From contig OY970166.1 of assembly GCA_963706595.1 (NCBI GenBank), positions 5,088,001-5,152,000 on the forward strand: a stretch of 64,000 nucleotides of DNA, in the 5' to 3' direction. The notes beneath the pieces were generated by a model. That model worked only from the letters and a program-made list of their open reading frames with translations, was not told where the DNA came from and did no database searches. The stretch comes from an uncultured cyanobacterium (GTDB lineage: Bacteria; Cyanobacteriota; Cyanobacteriia; Cyanobacteriales; Nostocaceae). Within the stretch, counting starts at the first letter, position 1, and each line of letters starts with the position of its first letter. This document shows positions 1 to 23,763 of this stretch, piece by piece. The translations under genes and the position numbers were made by a program.

Positions 1-279
1 AGCTAATAATTCTTTTCTTTCTTTAGCAGATAGTGATTTAATTGCTTTCATATCATTTTGTTTAACTAGTTTAGAGTGTAGACCATGAGTGATTCTAGCC
101 TTAGCTGCTTTACCCCCATGAGATGCACAACATTGGTAACCAATCATTACTTTATTTTTACATTGGGTGCCATCTCTTTTAATAACAGGACACCTTTGAG
201 GTTCAGGTCTTCTACCTGACTTATACCTATGTTTGTAAACTGCACTGTCTACATAGCTAGGTTTATTTTCTTGAGACAT
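1..279 (-). CDS. HGGxSTG-like Zn-binding protein, probable terminase small subunit (runs off window start)
   Basis: Not in ORF track; my translation from ATG at 279: MSQENKPS...RCPVIKRDGTQCKNKVMIGYQCCASHGGKAAKARITHGLHSK..., open to nt 1; C..C..C..HGG and HG.xS motif pattern. Confidence 0.65.
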   Translation of the reverse strand, partial: MSQENKPSYVDSAVYKHRYKSGRRPEPQRCPVIKRDGTQCKNKVMIGYQCCASHGGKAAKARITHGLHSKLVKQNDMKAIKSLSAKERKELLA

Positions 280-755: not shown

Positions 756-2309
756 TTAAGGTGCAATCTCCATAAGTGTTACAGAAGAATATCCTTGGTT
801 ATAAGAATTAACTAATTTGTTTATCCAAATATTTGTAATACTAGAAGCACCAAGAAAAATACCATATTCAACAAATGAAGTAGTACCAGGACTATCTAAA
901 ATATCATAAGTAATACTATTTGAGGCAATAGTAGCATCAATAGGAGTGAATCTAGTTGTTTGTAAAGTGCTACTAGTTGGGCTCATTCTTCTTAATTCCA
1001 CAATTATAACTGTACCACTTTGAACACTAAGCCCACCTAAGGAAAGTCTTATTAATATTTTGCTATTAACATTAGAAGGTTGGATAATTGTTTGTGGAAA
1101 ACCTAAGTACCCAGGGGTAGTTCCAGCTTGAGCTTGAATTTCATTACCACTACCTACTGTTACTACTTGTAATACCTTACCTCCACCACCACCTCCACTA
1201 GCAGCCGCTTGAGGTTCCCACCTGCTATTAGCAGAACTGTAAACTAATACTTGACCATCAGTAGGAGCAGCAGTATGTACATTGACTCCTCTAAGTTTGT
1301 CTGCATTCCATTGTGCAGTACCATTACCAACTTGAGCAGCAGTAACAGAGTGAGGGTTATTAGTTGCAGTTACGTGACCAGTAACAGTTGTATTTGAAGA
1401 TGCACTAGTCAATCTACCATCAGCACTAACAGTTATGTTAGCAGCGTTATAAGCTCCAGCAGTGACTCCTGAATTTCCTATTGAGGGATTAGGATATGTG
1501 CCAGTTAATGAACCTCCTGCTGATCCTGTAGGGTTTCTAGAATCAGTTAATCTAGAGTCTGAAGTATTAACTTTACCAGCTAAGAAAGTGTCTAGTTGTA
1601 GAGTGGTATAAATTTCAGAAACATCAGCTTTATCATTTAGCAAAGCATCTGTTTCTGTTTTCAAATAGTAATCAGTTAAATCAACAGAACCGCCAGCCCC
1701 AGTCTCATCAACTGCATATTCTAAAGATTGACTAGTGGAGTTATATTTTAAAACTTTACCATCCCCTATAGCAGAGTCATCTACAGCTACACCTTTAATG
1801 CGATCGCTATTCCATTGTGCAGTATCTTTACCTACCTGTGTAGCTGTTACTGAGTGAGGATTAGAAGTGCTAGCAATGTGAGCAGAAGTAGTAGACTCAT
1901 TTGCTTTACCAGTTAATAAGTTATCTACCTCAGTTTTAAGATAGTAAACAGTTAAGTCTGGACTATCAGGAATTAAGTTATCTACTTCAGTTTTAGTGTA
2001 GTAACTGGTTAAATTAGAAATATCAACTTTATCAGTTAATAAAGCATCAACTTCAGTTTGTGAATAATAAGGAATCTCTTCTGAACCTGAACCAACACTT
2101 CCTTGAGCAAGTAAGTCCCAATCTAAAGCAGTCAAGCTGGGTTCTTCACTTGTAGTCTTGTTAGCTCTATAAGATGAGCCATCATAGAAGACTCCTTGGT
2201 TGCGTCTGTATATCCTGCTAGTGACCCAATCTCCTACCCATACTACAGAAATACCATTGACAGTAGGGATAGGGCTAGAAGAAGTAGCTGGGTTAATTTC
2301 TATTGCCAT
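756..2309 (-). CDS. Tail fibre / receptor-binding protein
   Basis: N-terminal CBM5/12-like W..Y..G.V.Y.G..Y.A motif, five YYxKTEVDxLL-type repeats, two NPHSVTAxQVG repeats, poly-Gly linker and C-terminal tip domain ([10 protein letters not shown]). Confidence 0.85.
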
Positions 2310-7452: not shown

Positions 7453-8526
7453 TTAAAGGTTACTAGGTGCTGTGTAGGAAGTTGCTGTTAGTTGAAGGAC
7501 TGCACAAGCTCCACGGTGGTTAGGTGCATATCCCCAACCGTCTGTCATGATTGTGTTTTCTAAAGCAAAGTTAGACTTAACATCAACTTGTAAACCAGCC
7601 AAGCTAGAAATAGCAGGTATGCGGCTTAAGAAAGGAGTTCTGTTAGCTCCACCATCTACACCTACAGCAACTGCATAATTCAAAGGTACTACAGGTGTTT
7701 TGATAATAGGAACGTTAGAAATGAAACCTACCAAGCCTTCCCAAGGACTTAGTTGACGCATTCTTTCATTACTAGCACCACCACTTTGAATATCAAGTGA
7801 GCGTCCAATTTGATTTTCTGCTGGTACAAACTCAGGTAAAGCTTCTAAGCGGTACTCATAATCACTAACCCAGATTTCAATTTGTTTGAAACCATGATGT
7901 CTGATTTTGTCAATCAATTTGCTGCGTACATCAACAGCAGTAGGATTACCTGCACTAGCAACACCAGTGTAATGTTGTAGGTCACCTGCTACAAAGGTAT
8001 AACCATTTACACTAGGAGCAGCAACAGAGTCTGCATCATTGTAAAAAGGAATACTAGTAGTCTGGTACTTCTGAATACTGTCAATTACTACACGGTTGGT
8101 ATTAGTAAAGATAGCTTGACGTAACGCACTAAACCTAGCTTTTTGGAAAGAAGTAAGTTTGGCTTGTACATAAGAAGCTAGCTCTTCAGAGGTCATTAAC
8201 CTAACAGCTCTACTGCTCAAAGTAAGTGCAGTCATAAACTCTTCATAAGGAATTTCTTGCATGTAATCCCATACAGAAGTCCGTGAGGTAGGTCTAGCTG
8301 ATTCAGTTAGATTTTCTAAATCCTCTCCTTCATAACTTTTGATCAACTTTTGAGGAGTAGCAATTGTTTCTGTCAGAGGAGCAAAGAAACGTGCATTCAT
8401 GTCAGTGTAGTGCATGAAGTCAGAATCTAAGTCTCTGATGATACTAACAACAGACTGATTATCAATAGTGACTAGCTCAGTATCATTAGTAGAAAGTTCA
8501 CCAAAGAAAGTAGTATTGTATGCCAT
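7453..8526 (-). CDS. Major capsid protein (probably HK97 fold)
   Basis: 357 aa; position after scaffold/decoration; followed by hairpin; C-terminal DGWGYAPNHRGACAV resembles HK97-fold C-termini. Confidence 0.75.
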   Translation of the reverse strand: MAYNTTFFGELSTNDTELVTIDNQSVVSIIRDLDSDFMHYTDMNARFFAPLTETIATPQKLIKSYEGEDLENLTESARPTSRTSVWDYMQEIPYEEFMTALTLSSRAVRLMTSEELASYVQAKLTSFQKARFSALRQAIFTNTNRVVIDSIQKYQTTSIPFYNDADSVAAPSVNGYTFVAGDLQHYTGVASAGNPTAVDVRSKLIDKIRHHGFKQIEIWVSDYEYRLEALPEFVPAENQIGRSLDIQSGGASNERMRQLSPWEGLVGFISNVPIIKTPVVPLNYAVAVGVDGGANRTPFLSRIPAISSLAGLQVDVKSNFALENTIMTDGWGYAPNHRGACAVLQLTATSYTAPSNL

Positions 8527-8943: not shown

Positions 8944-9336
8944 TTAATACCCACGCCAAGCTTTAACTTTGCGTTCTTCTTTAGTAGAAGTTTGTTGTAG
9001 TGGTACTCCAGGTTTGGTAACCACATCTTTAGTACCTGATGCTTTAGCTAATGCACCTTGTAAAGCAGCTTGAATCTTAGGTACTAAGTTTTCTTTTAAG
9101 TCTGTTTCTAGTGATAACTGTTTAGCTAAATAGTCTGCTTCTACTTCTTCTTGAGAAGAACCAGATGCTTTAATACCTAGCAGTTTAGCCATCCTTTGAA
9201 AGTCAGGTTTAGTTTTAGCTAATGCAGCTTCATAATCAATCTCAGGTGCATCAGGTGTAATAGCTTCTAAACCTAAATCTAGTTCACTTGTTTCTTCAAT
9301 GGGAGTTTGTTGTACTTCACTCATCTTCAGTTTCAA
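8944..9336 (-). CDS. Capsid scaffolding protein
   Basis: Acidic N-terminus, helical, basic C-terminus; lies between portal and capsid genes. Confidence 0.6.
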   Translation of the reverse strand: MKLKMSEVQQTPIEETSELDLGLEAITPDAPEIDYEAALAKTKPDFQRMAKLLGIKASGSSQEEVEADYLAKQLSLETDLKENLVPKIQAALQGALAKASGTKDVVTKPGVPLQQTSTKEERKVKAWRGY

Positions 9337-10745
9337 TATTATTTTCTATAGGGTCAATACTATCTTCTACAGGTTGAATAACTTTAGTGCCAGGGTTATT
9401 AATTGCCTTATCTGTAAAGATATTACCATCATCAGCATTAGCAGCATCCTTACTATCAACTAGGGCAGCACTGTATTGAATGTTAAGTCCTTTTTCTGCA
9501 TCTAGCTGTTCAAGTTCTTTGTCAGCTTCTGCTTCAGTTAGACCTTCAACTTGAATCAAGTATCTCTTTCTAGAAATAAGTTTATTCTTGACAGCTTCTA
9601 TTTGTAAACGCTTATCTTCTAAGTTTTCAGGCATCATGTCAGGCAGATCTACTCTAAAAGCTATGTCAATACCTAACTCTGAGAAAATAGTCTTAAGGGC
9701 TGAAAGAAGATAACTAGCTCTACTTAATGTAGCACGTTGTAGTGGCTCATACAACACACTAAGAGAAGATGAACTACTGGCTGATCTAGCATTCTGTAGT
9801 TCTAAGACCATGACTCCACAAAGACTATAAATATCTTGCAGAATGATTAGTCTCTGTCTTTCTAGATAAGGTGAATCTTGAGGTTGTAAATAACCAATGC
9901 GAGGAGTGATACCAAGTTCAGCCGCAGCATTACTAATAGGCAGGTGTAGAATACTAGCACCATCAGAAGTAAATGCTGTTTGAAAAGCTGATGAACCTGT
10001 AGCAGACTCTATACTCTCAAGAGGAGATGAATTAGAATCTACCAATAAATGTAGGTGCAGAAGTTCCAATTGTATAAACCTGTGGCTTGTGATGCTGTCC
10101 ATTTGTGTGGATGCGTGACCGGACTGCACAATACTCCAACTGTAAATGAATTAACCTTTCAATTGGAGATTGTGACTCTCTTCCAATGAGAGAATTTACA
10201 ACTCTTACAATAGGTATATGATCACCTAATTCTACTGGTTCAGCATTGCCTACTTTTTGAAAGTATCTGTATGCAGGTAAGTCAAATACATTTAACTCTG
10301 GGGATTCATTGGTGAGAGTTAAGTAATGCTCTACTCTTACATCAGTGTATGCATTTCTAACAGGGTCATAGACTTCTCTTTTCTCCCGCAGGTACACTAC
10401 TTGCATTGGGTTATTAGGGTCAACCTTAATTTCCTCAATGTCAAGCGTATGAATATGACGCAGCTTACCTTGAGAAACCTCAATGAAAGATTCACCAAAT
10501 ACAGGTACTTCCAAATAGACATCACTCAGGATTCTATAAAGATTAATCTCATTTAGTTTGTCATCTAATTGTTCTTGTTGCTCAGAATTGATAGCTAAGA
10601 ATTTAAGTTTTTTTTGATAGCCATCTCCCAATAAAAATCCTTTGATTTGCTCTACAACTAACTGAATTAGCTTGACTGGTAACTCTTGATTAGTAGCAGG
10701 GTTGATACCTTTGTAAGCATCAAACAATTCTTGTTTAGAACTCAT
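9317..10745 (-). CDS. Portal protein (SPP1-like), split by a +1 frameshift near 10047
   Basis: Removing one T (ACA TTTA TTG) joins ORFs 10032-10745 and 9317-10129 into ~475 aa; IPIVRVVN...SQSPIERLIHLQ and ISRKRYL...EAEADKELEQL resemble SPP1-type portals. Confidence 0.7.
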
Positions 10746-12256: not shown

Positions 12257-12285
12257 TTGACTAGACTCTTAAAGAATGTTATTAT
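12257..12285 (+). promoter_or_regulatory. Sigma70-type promoter of phage early operon
   Basis: TTGACT-17 bp-TATTAT with extended -10 TGn, 34 nt upstream of ATG 12320. Confidence 0.65.
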
Positions 12286-12319
12286 TAGTAGTATAAAGAA
12301 ATTCAATAAATACACAAAT

Positions 12320-12478
12320 ATGAAACTAGATAAACTTACTTCAATCAGACTTTTTAAAGGTGACAATGACCAGCTTCAAAAGATAGCTGATGCCAAAGGT
12401 TTAGACAGAGCTGACATTATCAGAGAAGCAGTTAAGCTCTATCTGCAAGGTGAAAGAGATCAGACTTTTAGCTTTTAG
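12320..12478 (+). CDS. Ribbon-helix-helix (CopG-like) regulator
   Basis: TSIRL...QLQKIADAKGLDRADIIREAVKLYL. Confidence 0.85.
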   Translation: MKLDKLTSIRLFKGDNDQLQKIADAKGLDRADIIREAVKLYLQGERDQTFSF

Positions 12479-12560: not shown

Positions 12561-13331
12561 ATGTCTAACTTACAAATTACAGTACAAAACATTAACTCAG
12601 AATTGGTTGTTGACTCTAGATTGATTGCTTCTGAGTTAGGGGTTCTACATAAAAATCTTAAAGAGCTAATTAAAACTTATTACGCTGACTTTTATCAACT
12701 TGGTCAGGTCGCGTTTGAAACGCAGGCTGGAGATATTAGATATGCTGAAACTTTTTATTACTTAAATGAAGACCAGTGTTATTTACTACTGACTTACTGT
12801 AAAAATACTCCTCAAGCTAGACAAGCTAAACTTAATTTAGTTAAAGCTTACAAAGCAGCTAGAAATACTGTTGATTTACCTAATAATTTAATTGATGCAG
12901 TTGAGGCTTATCTTATTGCTTTAAAAGAGAAGCAGGCTTTAGCATTGGTGGCTGCTGAGGCTCAAGAGAAGGTAAATGAGTTAACTCCTAAAGCTCAAGA
13001 TTGGGATGCTCTCTGTGACCGTGAAGGGCTGATGAATGTAGAAACTGTAGCTAAAGTTCTTTGTGTAAAAGGGTTAGGTAGAAATAATTTATTTAGATTT
13101 TTACGTGATAAGAGTATTCTAAATTTAAGCAATAACCCTTATCAAAACTTTGTAGATACAGGTTACTTTGTAATCAGAATTAAGTACAACCAATACACAC
13201 TGAAAGATGATTCTGTTACCTTAGTTACACCAAAAGGTTTTAGTTTCATTAAGCGTACACTTGAGAAAGCAGGTTATAGTATTCCTACTAATCCTACTCC
13301 TCCAGGTGCAGCAGCTCTTAAGGCAGCATAG
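12561..13331 (+). CDS. Phage antirepressor (Rha N-terminal + ANT/KilA-C domain)
   Basis: VDSRLIA..LG..HK N-terminus; PKA..WD...GRNNLFRFLR...PYQ.F.D.GYF...TLVTPKG C-terminus. Confidence 0.9.
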   Translation: MSNLQITVQNINSELVVDSRLIASELGVLHKNLKELIKTYYADFYQLGQVAFETQAGDIRYAETFYYLNEDQCYLLLTYCKNTPQARQAKLNLVKAYKAARNTVDLPNNLIDAVEAYLIALKEKQALALVAAEAQEKVNELTPKAQDWDALCDREGLMNVETVAKVLCVKGLGRNNLFRFLRDKSILNLSNNPYQNFVDTGYFVIRIKYNQYTLKDDSVTLVTPKGFSFIKRTLEKAGYSIPTNPTPPGAAALKAA

Positions 13332-13463: not shown

Positions 13464-15018
13464 ATGAATAACGCTTATATTATTAAAACCCTTAGAAGTC
13501 CTGAATCAGTTAAGACCTACTTAGATACCTTGCTAAAAGACTTTACTAAATCTGATTATCAATTCTTTGTTCATGTTTACAGTAGCACTCTAGTATCTTT
13601 TATACAGAGAGAATCTGGTTGGGTTCCTATTAGTGCAGAATTAATTAGAAAGCAGTGGGGTAAAACAAAAATTCAGCTTGAAAAGATGAAAGAAGCTGGT
13701 CTACTAGAAATTAAGGTACTGGATCAACTTGAGCTTGCTGATGGGTTATTCCTAGAGCAAACCTATTCTAGGAAAGATGGTCTATGTCGGTGTTATAGAA
13801 CTCCTCTAGAAATAATGGAACAAATAGAGTACCATTCTCCTGATTCTTCTGAGGAATATACCACCTGCCAATATTACAATTTAATGACTGGTAAAAAAAT
13901 GAATGAGCAGGTGAGATACCTTAAAAAAGACCACAATAATAATTATCATTCTGATTTGCTTTTGGGAGCTATGGATACAATCAAAAAATGTATAGTTAAT
14001 TTAAGTGCTTTGGAGGCACATGTAGAAGCTCTAAAAGATGCGTTGAATCTTTGGTACTGAAAAAGACTTAAGGGCTTTTATTGTGGATAATTCTTGCCTT
14101 AAACGGATTAGAGAAAATCACACCCCATTAGAAAATGGTTTGGCTGAGTATCAGGTAATCTTTGGTGACCCTCAAATGTCTGGTAGATTAACTGAGCTAG
14201 GTAGTTGTATGCAGGGCTGCTCTAGAGAGATGAAAAAGCAGGGGTTCAGTGATATCCCTGGTATTAAAAACTATGATCTAAAGTCTAGTCAAGTATACGG
14301 TTTAATTCAATGGTTTGAAAAAGCTAAGATTGATACTTCTTGGTTGCATGAATACTTAGCTCAAGATAAGCAGGTATATGCTGATGCAGTAGGTATCAGT
14401 AAAGACAGATGGAAGCAGTGCTTTATGGCACTAATTATGGGAGGTTACTTACAAGAAAATGTAAAAGCTAAGAACTTTGAAGTGGTTAAGGTTGTTAAAA
14501 AGATAAGAGGACAATTGATAGAGCAGGAAGACTACCCTAATGTAGCTCTCATCAGGGCTTTATGTCAGGAAGCTAAAGGGAATCCAGATTTAGCTCTGAC
14601 ATATTACACTAGGTTTGCTCAAGTGGTAGCTCCCTTGAAGGCTTGTATTGATGCTTGGCAAGAATGGATGCTAACAAAGTATATCCCAGATGAATCTTTT
14701 TACGCTCATAGCCAGCAGTTACTTGTAAATAAGACAGGTAAAACTTTTAACTTAACAGAGTATCAGACTAAGGGGGAGTGGGATAAAAAGAAAGTTAACA
14801 AAATGAAAAGAAGGCTCTCAGCTTTCCTTCTGCAAGGCACAGAGGCAGCTTATATACATCACCTAACTGTAATCAGTAAGGACTTTGGGTACAGAGTCCT
14901 AAGTAATCAGCATGATGGTTTGGTAACAATTGGAGAGATACCTAGAGAAGCAATGGATATAGCTAAACGCAACTCAGGTCTAAAGTATGCTTACCTAGAG
15001 GAGAAGGCTTTTGTTTAA
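13464..15018 (+). CDS. Family A polymerase-like protein (TV-Pol/primase-polymerase-like), +1 frameshift at ~14046-14058
   Basis: SGRL...MQ, motif A YDLKSSQ, motif B KQCFMALIMGG, LQGTEA, motif C QHDGL; second frame is open from 14047; fused ~517 aa. Confidence 0.7.
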
Positions 15019-15393
15019 CCCATAGAGGTTGATACACCAGTAGACTGAATCAAAGGGGAGGGGTCATGAAGACTGCTCTCTTTTTGACTTGGGGGGCTGG
15101 AATCCTGATTTTGCAAAATTTTAGATATAAACAGGGGGGGTCAGGAAAGAGAGGGAACCAGGAGAACAGGAGACAGGAAGGGGGTATCAGGCAGGGAAGC
15201 AGAGTGAAGAAGACTCATATAAGGTATGTATGGCATAGTCTGTACTACACTATAGCTATAACCCTTACCCAGTAAAGATTACAGGCTATAAACTCCATGA
15301 GTTACGTAGAAGTAAACCCATAATAATAGTATTAAAAAGTACCTAATTTAATATAAGTAGGTACTCTATAATATACCCAAGTATATCTAAGCG

Positions 15394-17092: not shown

Positions 17093-17095
17093 TAT

Positions 17096-17115
17096 CTTAT
17101 GTCACCTTATGGCAG
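17096..17115. promoter_or_regulatory. Putative integrase arm-type binding sites
   Basis: Tandem CTTATGTCAC / CTTATGGCAG between the att core and the integrase start. Confidence 0.4.
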
Positions 17116-17170
17116 AACATAGGATAGCCTTAGAAATTAGTGTGCTTATATAGCTGTTTCTGGGGGTTAG

Positions 17171-17214
17171 TTCTCAATGCCATTGAGACGCGCTACCAAC
17201 TGTGCTATAGCCCC
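17171..17214 (-). tRNA. 5' half of tRNA-Ala(GGC), truncated after the anticodon arm (prophage att junction)
   Basis: GGGGCTA TA GCAC AGTTGGTA GCGC G TCTCA ATGGCAT TGAGA A, then no T-arm or acceptor 3' strand; A32-U38 loop typical of Ala(GGC). Confidence 0.9.
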
Positions 17215-17228
17215 TCGGATTCTTATCT

Positions 17229-17257
17229 ATAATCTCTTAATATTTGAGCTTTGTCAA
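17229..17257 (-). promoter_or_regulatory. tRNA promoter
   Basis: TTGACA (17257-17252)-17 bp-GATTAT upstream of the tRNA 5' end. Confidence 0.55.
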
Positions 17258-17304: not shown

Positions 17305-17496
17305 TTAGGACACTTGTAACAAATAGGTCATACAGTGTCCCATGAGGAAATAAACTACCAACATAGCAGCAGCTGCCAGCGCCACTAATGTCCCAGCCAG
17401 CATGAGAGAGAACTCTTTATACTGTACGGCTTTTTCCATTAGGTGCAGCGACCATGCCACCAGCGCTACGTCAAATAGTAAAATAACAATCAACAT
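17305..17496 (-). CDS. Small two-TM membrane protein
   Basis: 63 aa with two hydrophobic helices, downstream of hisF. Confidence 0.65.
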   Translation of the reverse strand: MLIVILLFDVALVAWSLHLMEKAVQYKEFSLMLAGTLVALAAAAMLVVYFLMGHCMTYLLQVS

Positions 17497-17604: not shown

Positions 17605-18378
17605 TCAAGGACACAACCGTACTGGTACTGAATGATCGTGCAAATAGTTCTTTATTTCTGCAACGCTTAATTGTCCGTAATGCAGTAATGATGCTAGTAA
17701 TGCAGCTTCGGCTTTACCCTCTGTTAATGCCGTATAAATATGTTCACAGTTACCTGCGCCACCAGAAGCAACGACGGGAACTTGTACGGATTCAGCGATC
17801 GCTCTTGTCAGCCCTAAGTCGTAGCCAGCTTGAGTTCCATCAGCATCCATACTTGTCACCAGTAATTCCCCTGCACCTCGTCTTTCCACTTCTTGCGCCC
17901 AACGTAAGGCATCTAAGCCCGTATTTTCTCTACCACCTCGCACGTACACATCCCAGCCTGGATTGTTAGGATCAATCCTGCGTCTGGCATCAATTGCAAC
18001 CACTATGCACTGATTACCAAAGCGATCGCTTGCCCGATTGATTAAGTCAGGATCACGTACAGCCGCTGAATTAATACTAACCTTGTCTGCGCCGGCTCGT
18101 AACAAAGCTTTAACATTTTCTAAGGTTTGAATTCCACCACCAACAGTCAAGGGAATGAAAACCTGTTCAGCAGTGCGATACACCACATCAATAATTGTAT
18201 CCCGGTCTTCATGAGTCGCCGTAATATCCAGAAACACTAACTCATCAGCACCGGCTTCGTTGTAAACCTTGGCTAGTTCTACCGGATCACCTGCATCCTT
18301 AAGGTCTACAAAGTTAACTCCTTTTACAACCCGTCCCGCCTTCACATCTAAGCACGGTAAGATTCTTTTAGATAACAT
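17605..18378 (-). CDS. hisF: Imidazole glycerol phosphate synthase cyclase subunit
   Basis: [34 protein letters not shown]. Confidence 0.98.
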
Positions 18379-22355: not shown

Positions 22356-23763
22356 TTATACTGAAGTAGTCTCAGGGACTAACCGATTTTGCTCACGCCT
22401 CCCCTTCACAACCATCTGCACACCGCCTTTCGGACCGAACAGTAAGCCCTTACGTACTGGTAGCACTGGTTGACTATCCGCTAATTCCATTTGCCAATTA
22501 GACAGCACTGTGGCTAACACCAGTTTCATCTCAAATAAAGCAAACGCCATACCAATACAGCGACGATTACCACCACCAAAAGGTATAAATTCTGAATTGG
22601 AAAACTGCCTTTCTAAAAAACGCTCTGGTTTAAATGTCTTGGAATCAGGATATAAATCTTCCCGATGATGAGTTAAATAAACACAGGGAATTAATAACGT
22701 CCCAGGCTCAAACTGATATTCTCCAATTTGTAACGGTGATTTGACTAATCTAGTCAAAGTCAGCATTGCAACTGGGTAAAGACGCAATGTTTCCGAACAA
22801 ACTGCATTCAAATAAGGCAATCGAAAAATAGCATTGGGGTCGGGTTTTTCGCCCAAAGTGCTTAACTCTTGCAATAATTTCTCACGCACCTGTGGCTGAT
22901 GGTGAATCCAGTATAAAGCCCAAGTCAGTGATGTAGCTGTAGTTTCGTGACCTGCGACTAATAAAGTCATCAACTCATCACGTAACTCCACATCCGTCAT
23001 CGGTTCACCCGCTTCATCACGAGTTGCCATCATCAAAGATAAAATATCAGTCCGGGATGAATCAGGCTGTGCTTTGCGTTCTTGAATCTCAGCATAAACG
23101 AGTTCGTCAATTTGTCGCCGTAAACGCAAATACTCTCCCCAAGGACTCCAAGCGACCTAAATCCCGACGCAGTGATGGGAACATCAGCAGCATTGACCGT
23201 AAAATAGGTGTTTTGGGATTGAGAATGGCAATTAAAAGTTCTTTGAGTTTTTCGTAACGTGGTCCCTCAGCTAGACCAAATACAGCCTTTAAAATTACCT
23301 GAAAAGAAATGGCTTGCATCGATGACAGGACGGAAATAGTTTCACCAACCTGCCATTGATTAGTTACTCTTTGACTAATATCACCAATTAGCTCACCATA
23401 AGCCAACATCCTTTCACCATGAAAGGGAGGTGTTAATAGCTTACGTTGTCGCTGGTGAGGCTTTCCATCTAGGGCTAGTAGTGATTGCTTTCCTAACAAA
23501 GGCGATTGTACCCCGGCGGCTCCACCAGAGTCTAAATGTTTGGGGTCGGTGCTAAAAATCTGCTGAATAGCTTGAGGGTTGCTGACGAATACTTGAGGCT
23601 TAGAAACTGGGCCGAAGCGGAGGGTGAAAATATCACCATAGCTTTTAGCACAGTCTTCCATATATTCCAAAGGGCTAGTCAGCCATTTGTATGTCTGTAG
23701 CCAAGGATGATTTTTGGGACCATCAGGTAGTTGAAGTTCAGGCATTTTGATTATTTTCCCCAT
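22356..23763 (-). CDS. Cytochrome P450 (CYP110-like), +1 frameshift at ~23154
   Basis: AGHETT, ETLR, FGGGNRRCIG; removing one C restores DLGAWSPWGEYLRLRRQ. Confidence 0.9.

Follow-up and report, generated by a model that had tools for sequence, protein, structure and literature searches.

A prophage in the window, the 64-kb stretch of DNA analysed here from genome G000, has displaced the 5′ half of a tRNA-Ala(GGC) gene to one of its junctions, and the whole gene stands at the other junction, just outside the window; of this integrated layout we are nearly certain. We also hold it to be highly probable that three features belong to a single explanation, namely an attP carrying a tRNA 5′ half, a swap of promoters between tRNA and integrase upon integration, and the retention of a phage arm after the prophage decays. 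The promoter-proximal junction lies at 16-18 kb, where the minus strand reads in order hisF, a 63-aa gene, TTGACA-17-GATTAT, nucleotides 1-44 of tRNA-Ala(GGC), 78 nt of other DNA and a tyrosine integrase gene (int). The two junctions comprise:

17605-18378 and 17305-17496, minus strand: host flank, hisF and the small 63-aa gene respectively; the same flank stands at empty sites and remnants
17257-17229, minus strand: putative host tRNA promoter TTGACA-17-GATTAT, a sequence match found at the matching position before the intact gene at the empty sites of G001, G002, G004, G005 and G010
17214-17171, minus strand: displaced 5′ half of tRNA-Ala(GGC), nt 1-44, the att identity block of the promoter-proximal junction (44/44 identical to the far copy)
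17188-17172, minus strand: anticodon stem-loop dyad TCTCAAT-GGC-ATTGAGA, probable core site
17183-17177, minus strand: 7-nt anticodon loop ATGGCAT, likely place of crossover
17170-17093, minus strand: phage P′ arm and int leader, with 10-bp-spaced repeats TGCCATA (17114-17108) and TGACATA (17104-17098), probable Int arm-type sites
17092-16016, minus strand: tyrosine integrase, 358 aa (Pfam PF00589, E 4e-22; R206, K247, R314 and Y346 invariant in the alignment)
G000:C1 5085052-5085025: candidate P-arm promoter TTCAAA-16-TATAAT preceding the restored tRNA, with arm repeats TGACATA/TGCCATA in its spacer
G000:C1 5084875-5084947, minus strand: complete, restored tRNA-Ala(GGC) called by ARAGORN, 3,053-3,125 bases before window position 1

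An earlier reading made from the sequence only had claimed that the tRNA is cut after its anticodon arm and that its 3′ end is not restored at the window junction. This is confirmed: after nt 44 of the half, at 17171, non-tRNA sequence stands in place of a T-arm, ARAGORN called no tRNA in the 64-kb window, and Rfam gave only a partial tRNA match of 26 bits at the junction. The stretch from the tRNA half to int showed no terminator-like site. The same reading had proposed a search upstream of the window for a matching half with its T-arm, and the complete tRNA was indeed found there: the 44 nt recur exactly once in the genome, 20,267 bp off, as the start of a complete tRNA-Ala(GGC). Chance is no explanation for this recurrence, since the copy has no mismatches and opens a whole tRNA, and the runner-up diagonal in the 5.57-Mb one-contig genome spans 14 nt. 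The fragment starts at 5105214 and the full gene at 5084947, both on the minus strand of C1 with the fragment upstream of the gene, and among the 44 tRNA genes that ARAGORN called in G000 the restored gene is the only Ala(GGC). The plain ARAGORN run listed no tRNA-Leu(TAA) for this genome; a call with an intron appears at 903086-903346.

The second check that had been proposed, a comparison with the empty locus in relatives, showed the uninterrupted site in five genomes of the same genus (G001, G002, G004, G005 and G010), each with host promoter and whole gene, and the downstream flank of the empty site is the G000 flank beyond the far junction (alignment checked for G002). Taken with the repeat, these empty sites therefore indicate that insertion of the prophage separated the 5′ end from the rest of the gene, which was made whole again at the far junction; the same two-junction layout also occurs in G003 and G007. 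By eye, the host flank past the far junction (L001:1845-6883) holds two ATPase-like ORFs around a WD40-repeat protein.

[quoted passage not shown] This candidate was rejected: the pairing is absent in G126, G135, G339 and G395, halves of Pro and Val tRNAs are followed by a similar motif, and the junction RNA is not predicted to fold in this way, so that these bases are probably a DNA motif.

The element measures 20,267 bp, with a GC content of 35.5% against 41.3% for the genome. Besides the integrase, it encodes:

13464-15018, plus strand: gene without assigned function, split in two ORFs by a 1-nt frameshift (one 517-aa ORF in G003)
12561-13331, plus strand: Rha/ANT antirepressor
12257-12478, plus strand: small repressor-like protein with Arc/CopG-type matches (phrog_876, E 1.4e-8)
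9317-10745, minus strand: portal-like gene in two pieces owing to a 1-nt frameshift (457 aa in G003)
7453-8526, minus strand: major capsid protein (phrog_3990, E 1.8e-21)
756-2309, minus strand: tail-fibre-like protein
1-279, minus strand: start of a gene crossing the window edge, probably the terminase small subunit judging from its position
G000:C1 5085890-5087542: terminase large subunit (phrog_2, E 1.3e-18), after the small subunit and before the far junction

ARAGORN called no tRNA inside the prophage. The late gene order is unusual, with portal and capsid first and the terminase subunits last beside the far att, and the phage genome measures only about 20 kb; this portal-first, terminase-last order is common to G003, G135 and G028. 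Between convergent phage genes lies an AT-rich hairpin (15324-15386, minus strand) with a weak Rfam match to Yfr10, 29 bits against a cut-off of 43 bits. The att copies do not differ from each other and int is uninterrupted; the portal gene and the gene at 13464-15018 carry 1-nt frameshifts relative to G003, and the G000 prophage may thus be defective. Assembly error is also possible, because a host P450 gene in the window is split too: it lies at 22356-23763 as two overlapping ORFs beside an intact convergent P450 (20661-22217), and represents a pseudogene or an assembly indel. Contigs of a related phage, arm included, were found in one seawater metagenome run. No attP was seen among the contigs of three DNA metagenome runs, a result uninformative on excision, and viral contigs held no relative of the integrase and no arm or junction pattern. 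The best integrase match among isolated phages has 30% identity (Planktothrix phage PaV-LD), solved structures matched only as distant integrases, and the nearest named integrase relative, at 93%, comes from a Nodularia record, which makes Nodularia the most likely host.

Relatives of the integrase occur in at least 16 of 389 genomes of the family (E <= 1e-50), in a search that scored the best ~5 candidates per genome and can miss copies. A tRNA 5′ half stands directly before int in 15 of the 16, derived from Ala-GGC in 12 cases and from Val-GAC, Val-CAC and Pro-CGG in one case each. Fourteen of these 15 5′-type elements have a full tRNA behind a phage arm at a second site; in G339, which is 80% complete, the second tRNA copy was not found. 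The sixteenth, G212, is flipped, with the inverted 3′ part of Val-CAC before int (loci L096 and L098). In a tree built without two truncated integrases, the two Val-CAC integrases, one of 5′ type and one flipped, are sisters (96/96); a single lineage has thus used tRNA-Val(CAC) in both orientations. A near-palindromic loop as the cause of flipping was rejected: the flipped case lies at Val(CAC), whose loop is non-palindromic.

Two genomes of the set show further histories. G003 holds a second copy of the phage backbone (L059-L060; G003:C1 about 3674700-3693400) whose integrase is a distant one (27%) and follows an intact tRNA-Met, which is the usual layout; its displaced 3′ tRNA-Met fragment was not found in the 32 kb searched, and an IS200/IS605-like gene pair, recognised by eye, lies near its far end. 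G395 (L091 and L095) has a tandem history, in which an older phage arm stands before a 5′ half and another integrase that contains a stop and has different repeats; its full tRNA stands 43.7 kb further, behind a different arm.

The identity blocks of the 5′-type elements end at nt 42-44 and that of the flipped G212 element begins at about nt 22, and their overlap (about nt 22-42) is centred on the anticodon. Crossover would accordingly take place, in all probability, inside the 7-nt anticodon loop. The perfect dyad that the sequence-only reading had singled out as a plausible recombinase core is present as described, and because the two kinds of block overlap around the anticodon it is still the likely core; what had to be corrected is its reading, as it is the normal anticodon stem-loop of tRNA-Ala(GGC), in which the anticodon stem is extended by A32-U38 and U33-A37. 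Of these two pairs, A32-U38 is a recognised feature of tRNA-Ala(GGC). The A-C mismatch reported in the D-stem (A12-C23) is likewise real, and its attribution to relaxed selection on a dead half is wrong, since both 44-nt copies are identical and the allele is widespread: besides the two copies of G000, it is present in intact genes of G001, G002, G005, G009 and G010, those of G001, G002, G005 and G010 standing at uninterrupted sites, and is carried by eight of the 11 genomes of the genus (G000 counted). The mismatch is a host allele. A GCAC/GCGC D-stem mismatch is found as well in intact tRNA-Val(CAC) genes (loci L097 and L096).

Each of the two arms carries a pair of 7-nt repeats 10 bp apart, located at -132/-122 or about -120/-110 from the anticodon on one side and at +66/+76 or +77/+87 on the other. 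The P′ pair falls at +65 to +88 in 13 of 14 junctions, with a single repeat in the 14th. Shifts by whole helical turns fit Int arm-type sites, which these repeats probably are, and similar 10-bp pairs are described for mycobacteriophage Omega (PMC3706429). Upstream of the restored tRNAs the P arms hold sigma-70-like sites whose spacer contains the far-arm repeat pair and which mostly end 64-77 nt before the tRNA, reading TTCAAA-16-TATAAT in G000, TTTAAA or TTGAAA-17-TATAAT in its congeners, and TTGACT-17-CATAAT or CATACT elsewhere. Scored against shuffled sequence, the G000 site reaches p 0.053, its -35 matching 4/6 with a 16-nt spacer, and the other same-genus arms give 0.000-0.023 (5/5); over 17 arms, ten score p <= 0.023 and six (p 0.09-0.20) are not clearly above shuffles. 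A single match at the G000 far end is weak by itself, because that end has 8 promoter-like sites against 4.3 +/- 1.8 in shuffles. We think that the P-arm promoter very probably works in driving the tRNA. Of the two options left by the sequence-only reading, the one in which a new 5′ half and promoter come from the far end of the phage finds support in a complete tRNA behind phage-arm DNA with a TATAAT-containing candidate site.

From these features we propose the following cycle. A temperate phage of about 20 kb would recombine, by its tyrosine integrase, in the anticodon loop of tRNA-Ala(GGC), its attP carrying the 5′ half of the gene instead of the usual 3′ half. On the phage circle, the P-arm promoter would face the half-tRNA and int; integration would then swap promoters, the phage promoter passing to the rebuilt tRNA and the host tRNA promoter to int. 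In G000 the host promoter of tRNA-Ala(GGC) is now directed at the tRNA half and int. More tentatively, Int bound to the repeats in the promoter spacer and before the int start may damp both transcripts; that Int controls the arm promoter is conceivable, and we would lean slightly against it. As a prophage decays, the P arm would be kept as the upstream region of the tRNA and the original site would erode. Against the promoter swap it can be said that the tRNA of an intact lysogen could be read from the co-directional late operon.

The last step of this cycle can be followed in genomes without the prophage. We searched the 389 family genomes with a 28-letter arm pattern in which the -35 and four letters of the -10 are fixed, and obtained 43 places in 42 genomes, with none for the reversed control. 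The motif occurs in 31 genomes without detected integrase versus 11 with. ARAGORN placed a tRNA ~95 nt downstream of the arm at all 30 loci fetched and at 4 later ones. All 32 arms tabulated read TTGACT-17-CATAAT, CATACT or TATACT, a conservation that is partly by construction because most of the promoter was fixed in the pattern; the last T of the -10 was free to vary in the search and is invariant. As orphans we took those 32 of the 42 motif genomes in which no link of the motif to an integrase-bearing element had been established before. In 31 of these 32, the sole Ala(GGC) match with an intact 5′ end lies 95-96 nt behind the motif, and in G384 the motif precedes Val-GAC. Of 32 ancestral sites found, 30 were fetched, and none of these has a full tRNA: a 5′ remnant, either truncated or mutated, outscores all 30 shuffles at 23 sites, and the other 7 are without a remnant. 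The orphan arms are spread over six genera (g1, g80, g61, g19, g76 and g6). Most of those in g80 share a single truncation at nt 29 and are probably one event rather than independent ones. Several g80 ancestral sites (L143-L160) also show a ~140-bp insertion between the old promoter and the dead 5′ remnant. Some orphans, G306 above all, may be fragmented lysogens, because the integrase search scored only the best ~5 candidates per genome.

Two cases illustrate the end state. In G006, which is 100% complete, the only Ala(GGC) match lies behind about 200 bp of arm beside a divergent pstS-like gene. At a distance of 36 kb, in inverted orientation, stands the host promoter together with a degenerate half and a P′-arm stub. 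In G009 and one G008 contig, a remnant of 1.2-1.6 kb with a lysin-like ORF (by eye) separates the old promoter from the arm. The G008 assembly (C157 and C239) contains both an empty site and a remnant-bearing site with matching host flank, possibly through strain mixture. The best available sign that the arm drives the tRNA is that the whole tRNA is kept behind the arm while the old half decays, and this pattern points to domestication of the phage promoter as the tRNA-Ala(GGC) promoter. A bolder version, in which the attP arm is an integrase-repressible promoter domesticated in several Nostocales lineages as the only tRNA-Ala(GGC) promoter, and Int acts as a trans-regulator of host translation, strikes us as rather unlikely. 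GCC makes up 22% of Ala codons in the host and 5% in the phage; were the bolder version true, an incoming or induced relative of the phage could bind the Int repeats still present in orphan arms and turn down the GCC-reading host tRNA.

The strongest competitor to a working arm promoter is a rebuilt tRNA behind an arm promoter that does not function, the gene being silent or fed by read-through and GCC being read by other Ala tRNAs. G000 does carry three Ala(TGC) genes and one Ala(CGC) gene, its promoter match is modest, and in G008 and G009 the host promoter lies just 1.2-1.6 kb upstream on the same strand. Read-through of this kind is at odds with G006, where the upstream gene is divergent, and a silent gene should decay as the halves at the host promoter have done, whereas a whole tRNA stands behind 30/30 fetched arms; we therefore regard the idea as improbable. 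Less probable still is that the P arm is a native host upstream region picked up by the phage, so that nothing was domesticated. The greater number of motif genomes without detected integrase would agree with this, as would the resemblance to host leaders of the ~10 nt with which phage arms end just ahead of the tRNA, yet the same repeat pair stands in the P′ arm beside int, four different tRNAs are found behind the arm (Ala-GGC, Pro-CGG, Val-GAC and, in related form, Val-CAC), most of the other families shown for the order normally have a TTGAC(A/G/T) site near the tRNA, and most orphan genomes retain a dead 5′ remnant at the ancestral site. Least credible of all is the other option of the sequence-only reading, a tRNA switched off in the lysogen and restored only by excision in the manner of the heterocyst nifD, hupL and fdxN elements, since it draws only on the broken look of the window junction and on a heterocyst-forming host group (inferred from named homologues), and is refuted by the gene being whole in the integrated state of G000 and 13 other 5′-type elements, by capsid, terminase and tail-like genes in the element, and by whole tRNAs kept behind the arm in genomes lacking the prophage body.

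The preferred reading, a phage promoter passed to the rebuilt tRNA and kept after decay, bears on more than this locus. Integration of the 5′ type must bring a promoter along, and the clade offers a named candidate together with a built-in tRNA/int promoter swap. Its genomes also form a natural sequence of stages: the empty site, the full lysogen, and finally some 100-200 bp of phage arm left before the only tRNA-Ala(GGC). Should the promoter prove functional, many filamentous cyanobacteria would depend on a phage attachment site for part of their core translation apparatus. The int-attP pair could be developed, as a candidate, into an integration tool for filamentous cyanobacterial hosts. As a caution, a lone tRNA 5′ half at a prophage edge does not make a switch.

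Zhao and Williams are said to have described, in 2002, tDNA islands with a displaced 5′ fragment. A thaumarchaeal survey that cites their work considers 5′ recombination considerably less frequent (PMC6563490), and Islander lists 159 5′-fragment islands among 3919 (PMC4383910). Measured by the Islander definition, the G000 element has a full tDNA and an end fragment on a shared replicon and in shared orientation with the 5′ fragment upstream, an integrase with PF00589 whose Xer and integron scores are all far below the cut-offs, a length of 20,267 bp where 2-200 kb is required, and an empty target in the five relatives named above. Like the Islander 5′ islands, it combines a tyrosine integrase, a 5′ fragment upstream of the regenerated gene, one orientation and an anticodon-centred site; unlike those islands as described there, it belongs to a whole Nostocales prophage clade using four tRNAs, with a promoter-like site overlapping the arm repeats and an arm persisting without the prophage (PMC4383910). 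Pelagiphage HTVC028P has a 40-bp attP core that is the 5′ end of tRNA-Asn, with reconstitution verified by PCR, and resembles the G000 prophage in that its core is the 5′ end of a tRNA gene; its attP however lies downstream of int and the main text does not use the word 'promoter', whereas in G000 a gap of 78 nt separates the core from the start of int, which is read in the direction leading away from the core (PMC8477408). Prochlorococcus tycheposons are described as likewise targeting Ala-GGC (bioRxiv 10.1101/2020.12.28.424599).

With the tRNA-dependent lysogeny of actinobacteriophages the G000 prophage would share a host that relies on a phage promoter for one tRNA isotype; those phages are described with a core of ~10 bp, a tRNA that is not rebuilt and a phage-encoded whole tRNA, whereas in G000 a 44-bp core rebuilds a hybrid host gene (PMC10865867). 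The G000 prophage has no complete cognate tRNA of its own, and this together with its 44-bp core and rebuilt tRNA places it outside tRNA-dependent lysogeny. In KplE1, a recombination arm overlaps the control sequences of the integrase gene intS and Int represses its own gene, which makes it the model for the possible Int control in G000, where the probable arm repeats lie at 17098-17114 and in the P-arm spacer; KplE1 has the usual layout of full tRNA then int and its own int promoter in attL, whereas in the G000 lysogen the host tRNA promoter faces int (PMC2951348). The G000 prophage and the heterocyst elements are both site-specific recombinase elements of a filamentous cyanobacterium. The heterocyst elements keep their target gene broken until excision; the G000 prophage, unlike them, restores its target and carries virion genes. 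In a literature search covering mainly the main texts of open papers, we found nothing on this phage family or on retention of an arm or promoter, and the descriptions of 5′-type elements that we consulted neither identify the promoter they carry nor follow its fate. The window junction is thus a member of a rare but known class of 5′-type integration; what appears to be new beyond that class is the clade-wide design with a putative promoter in the arm, the predicted exchange of promoters with int, and an arm that has been retained repeatedly.
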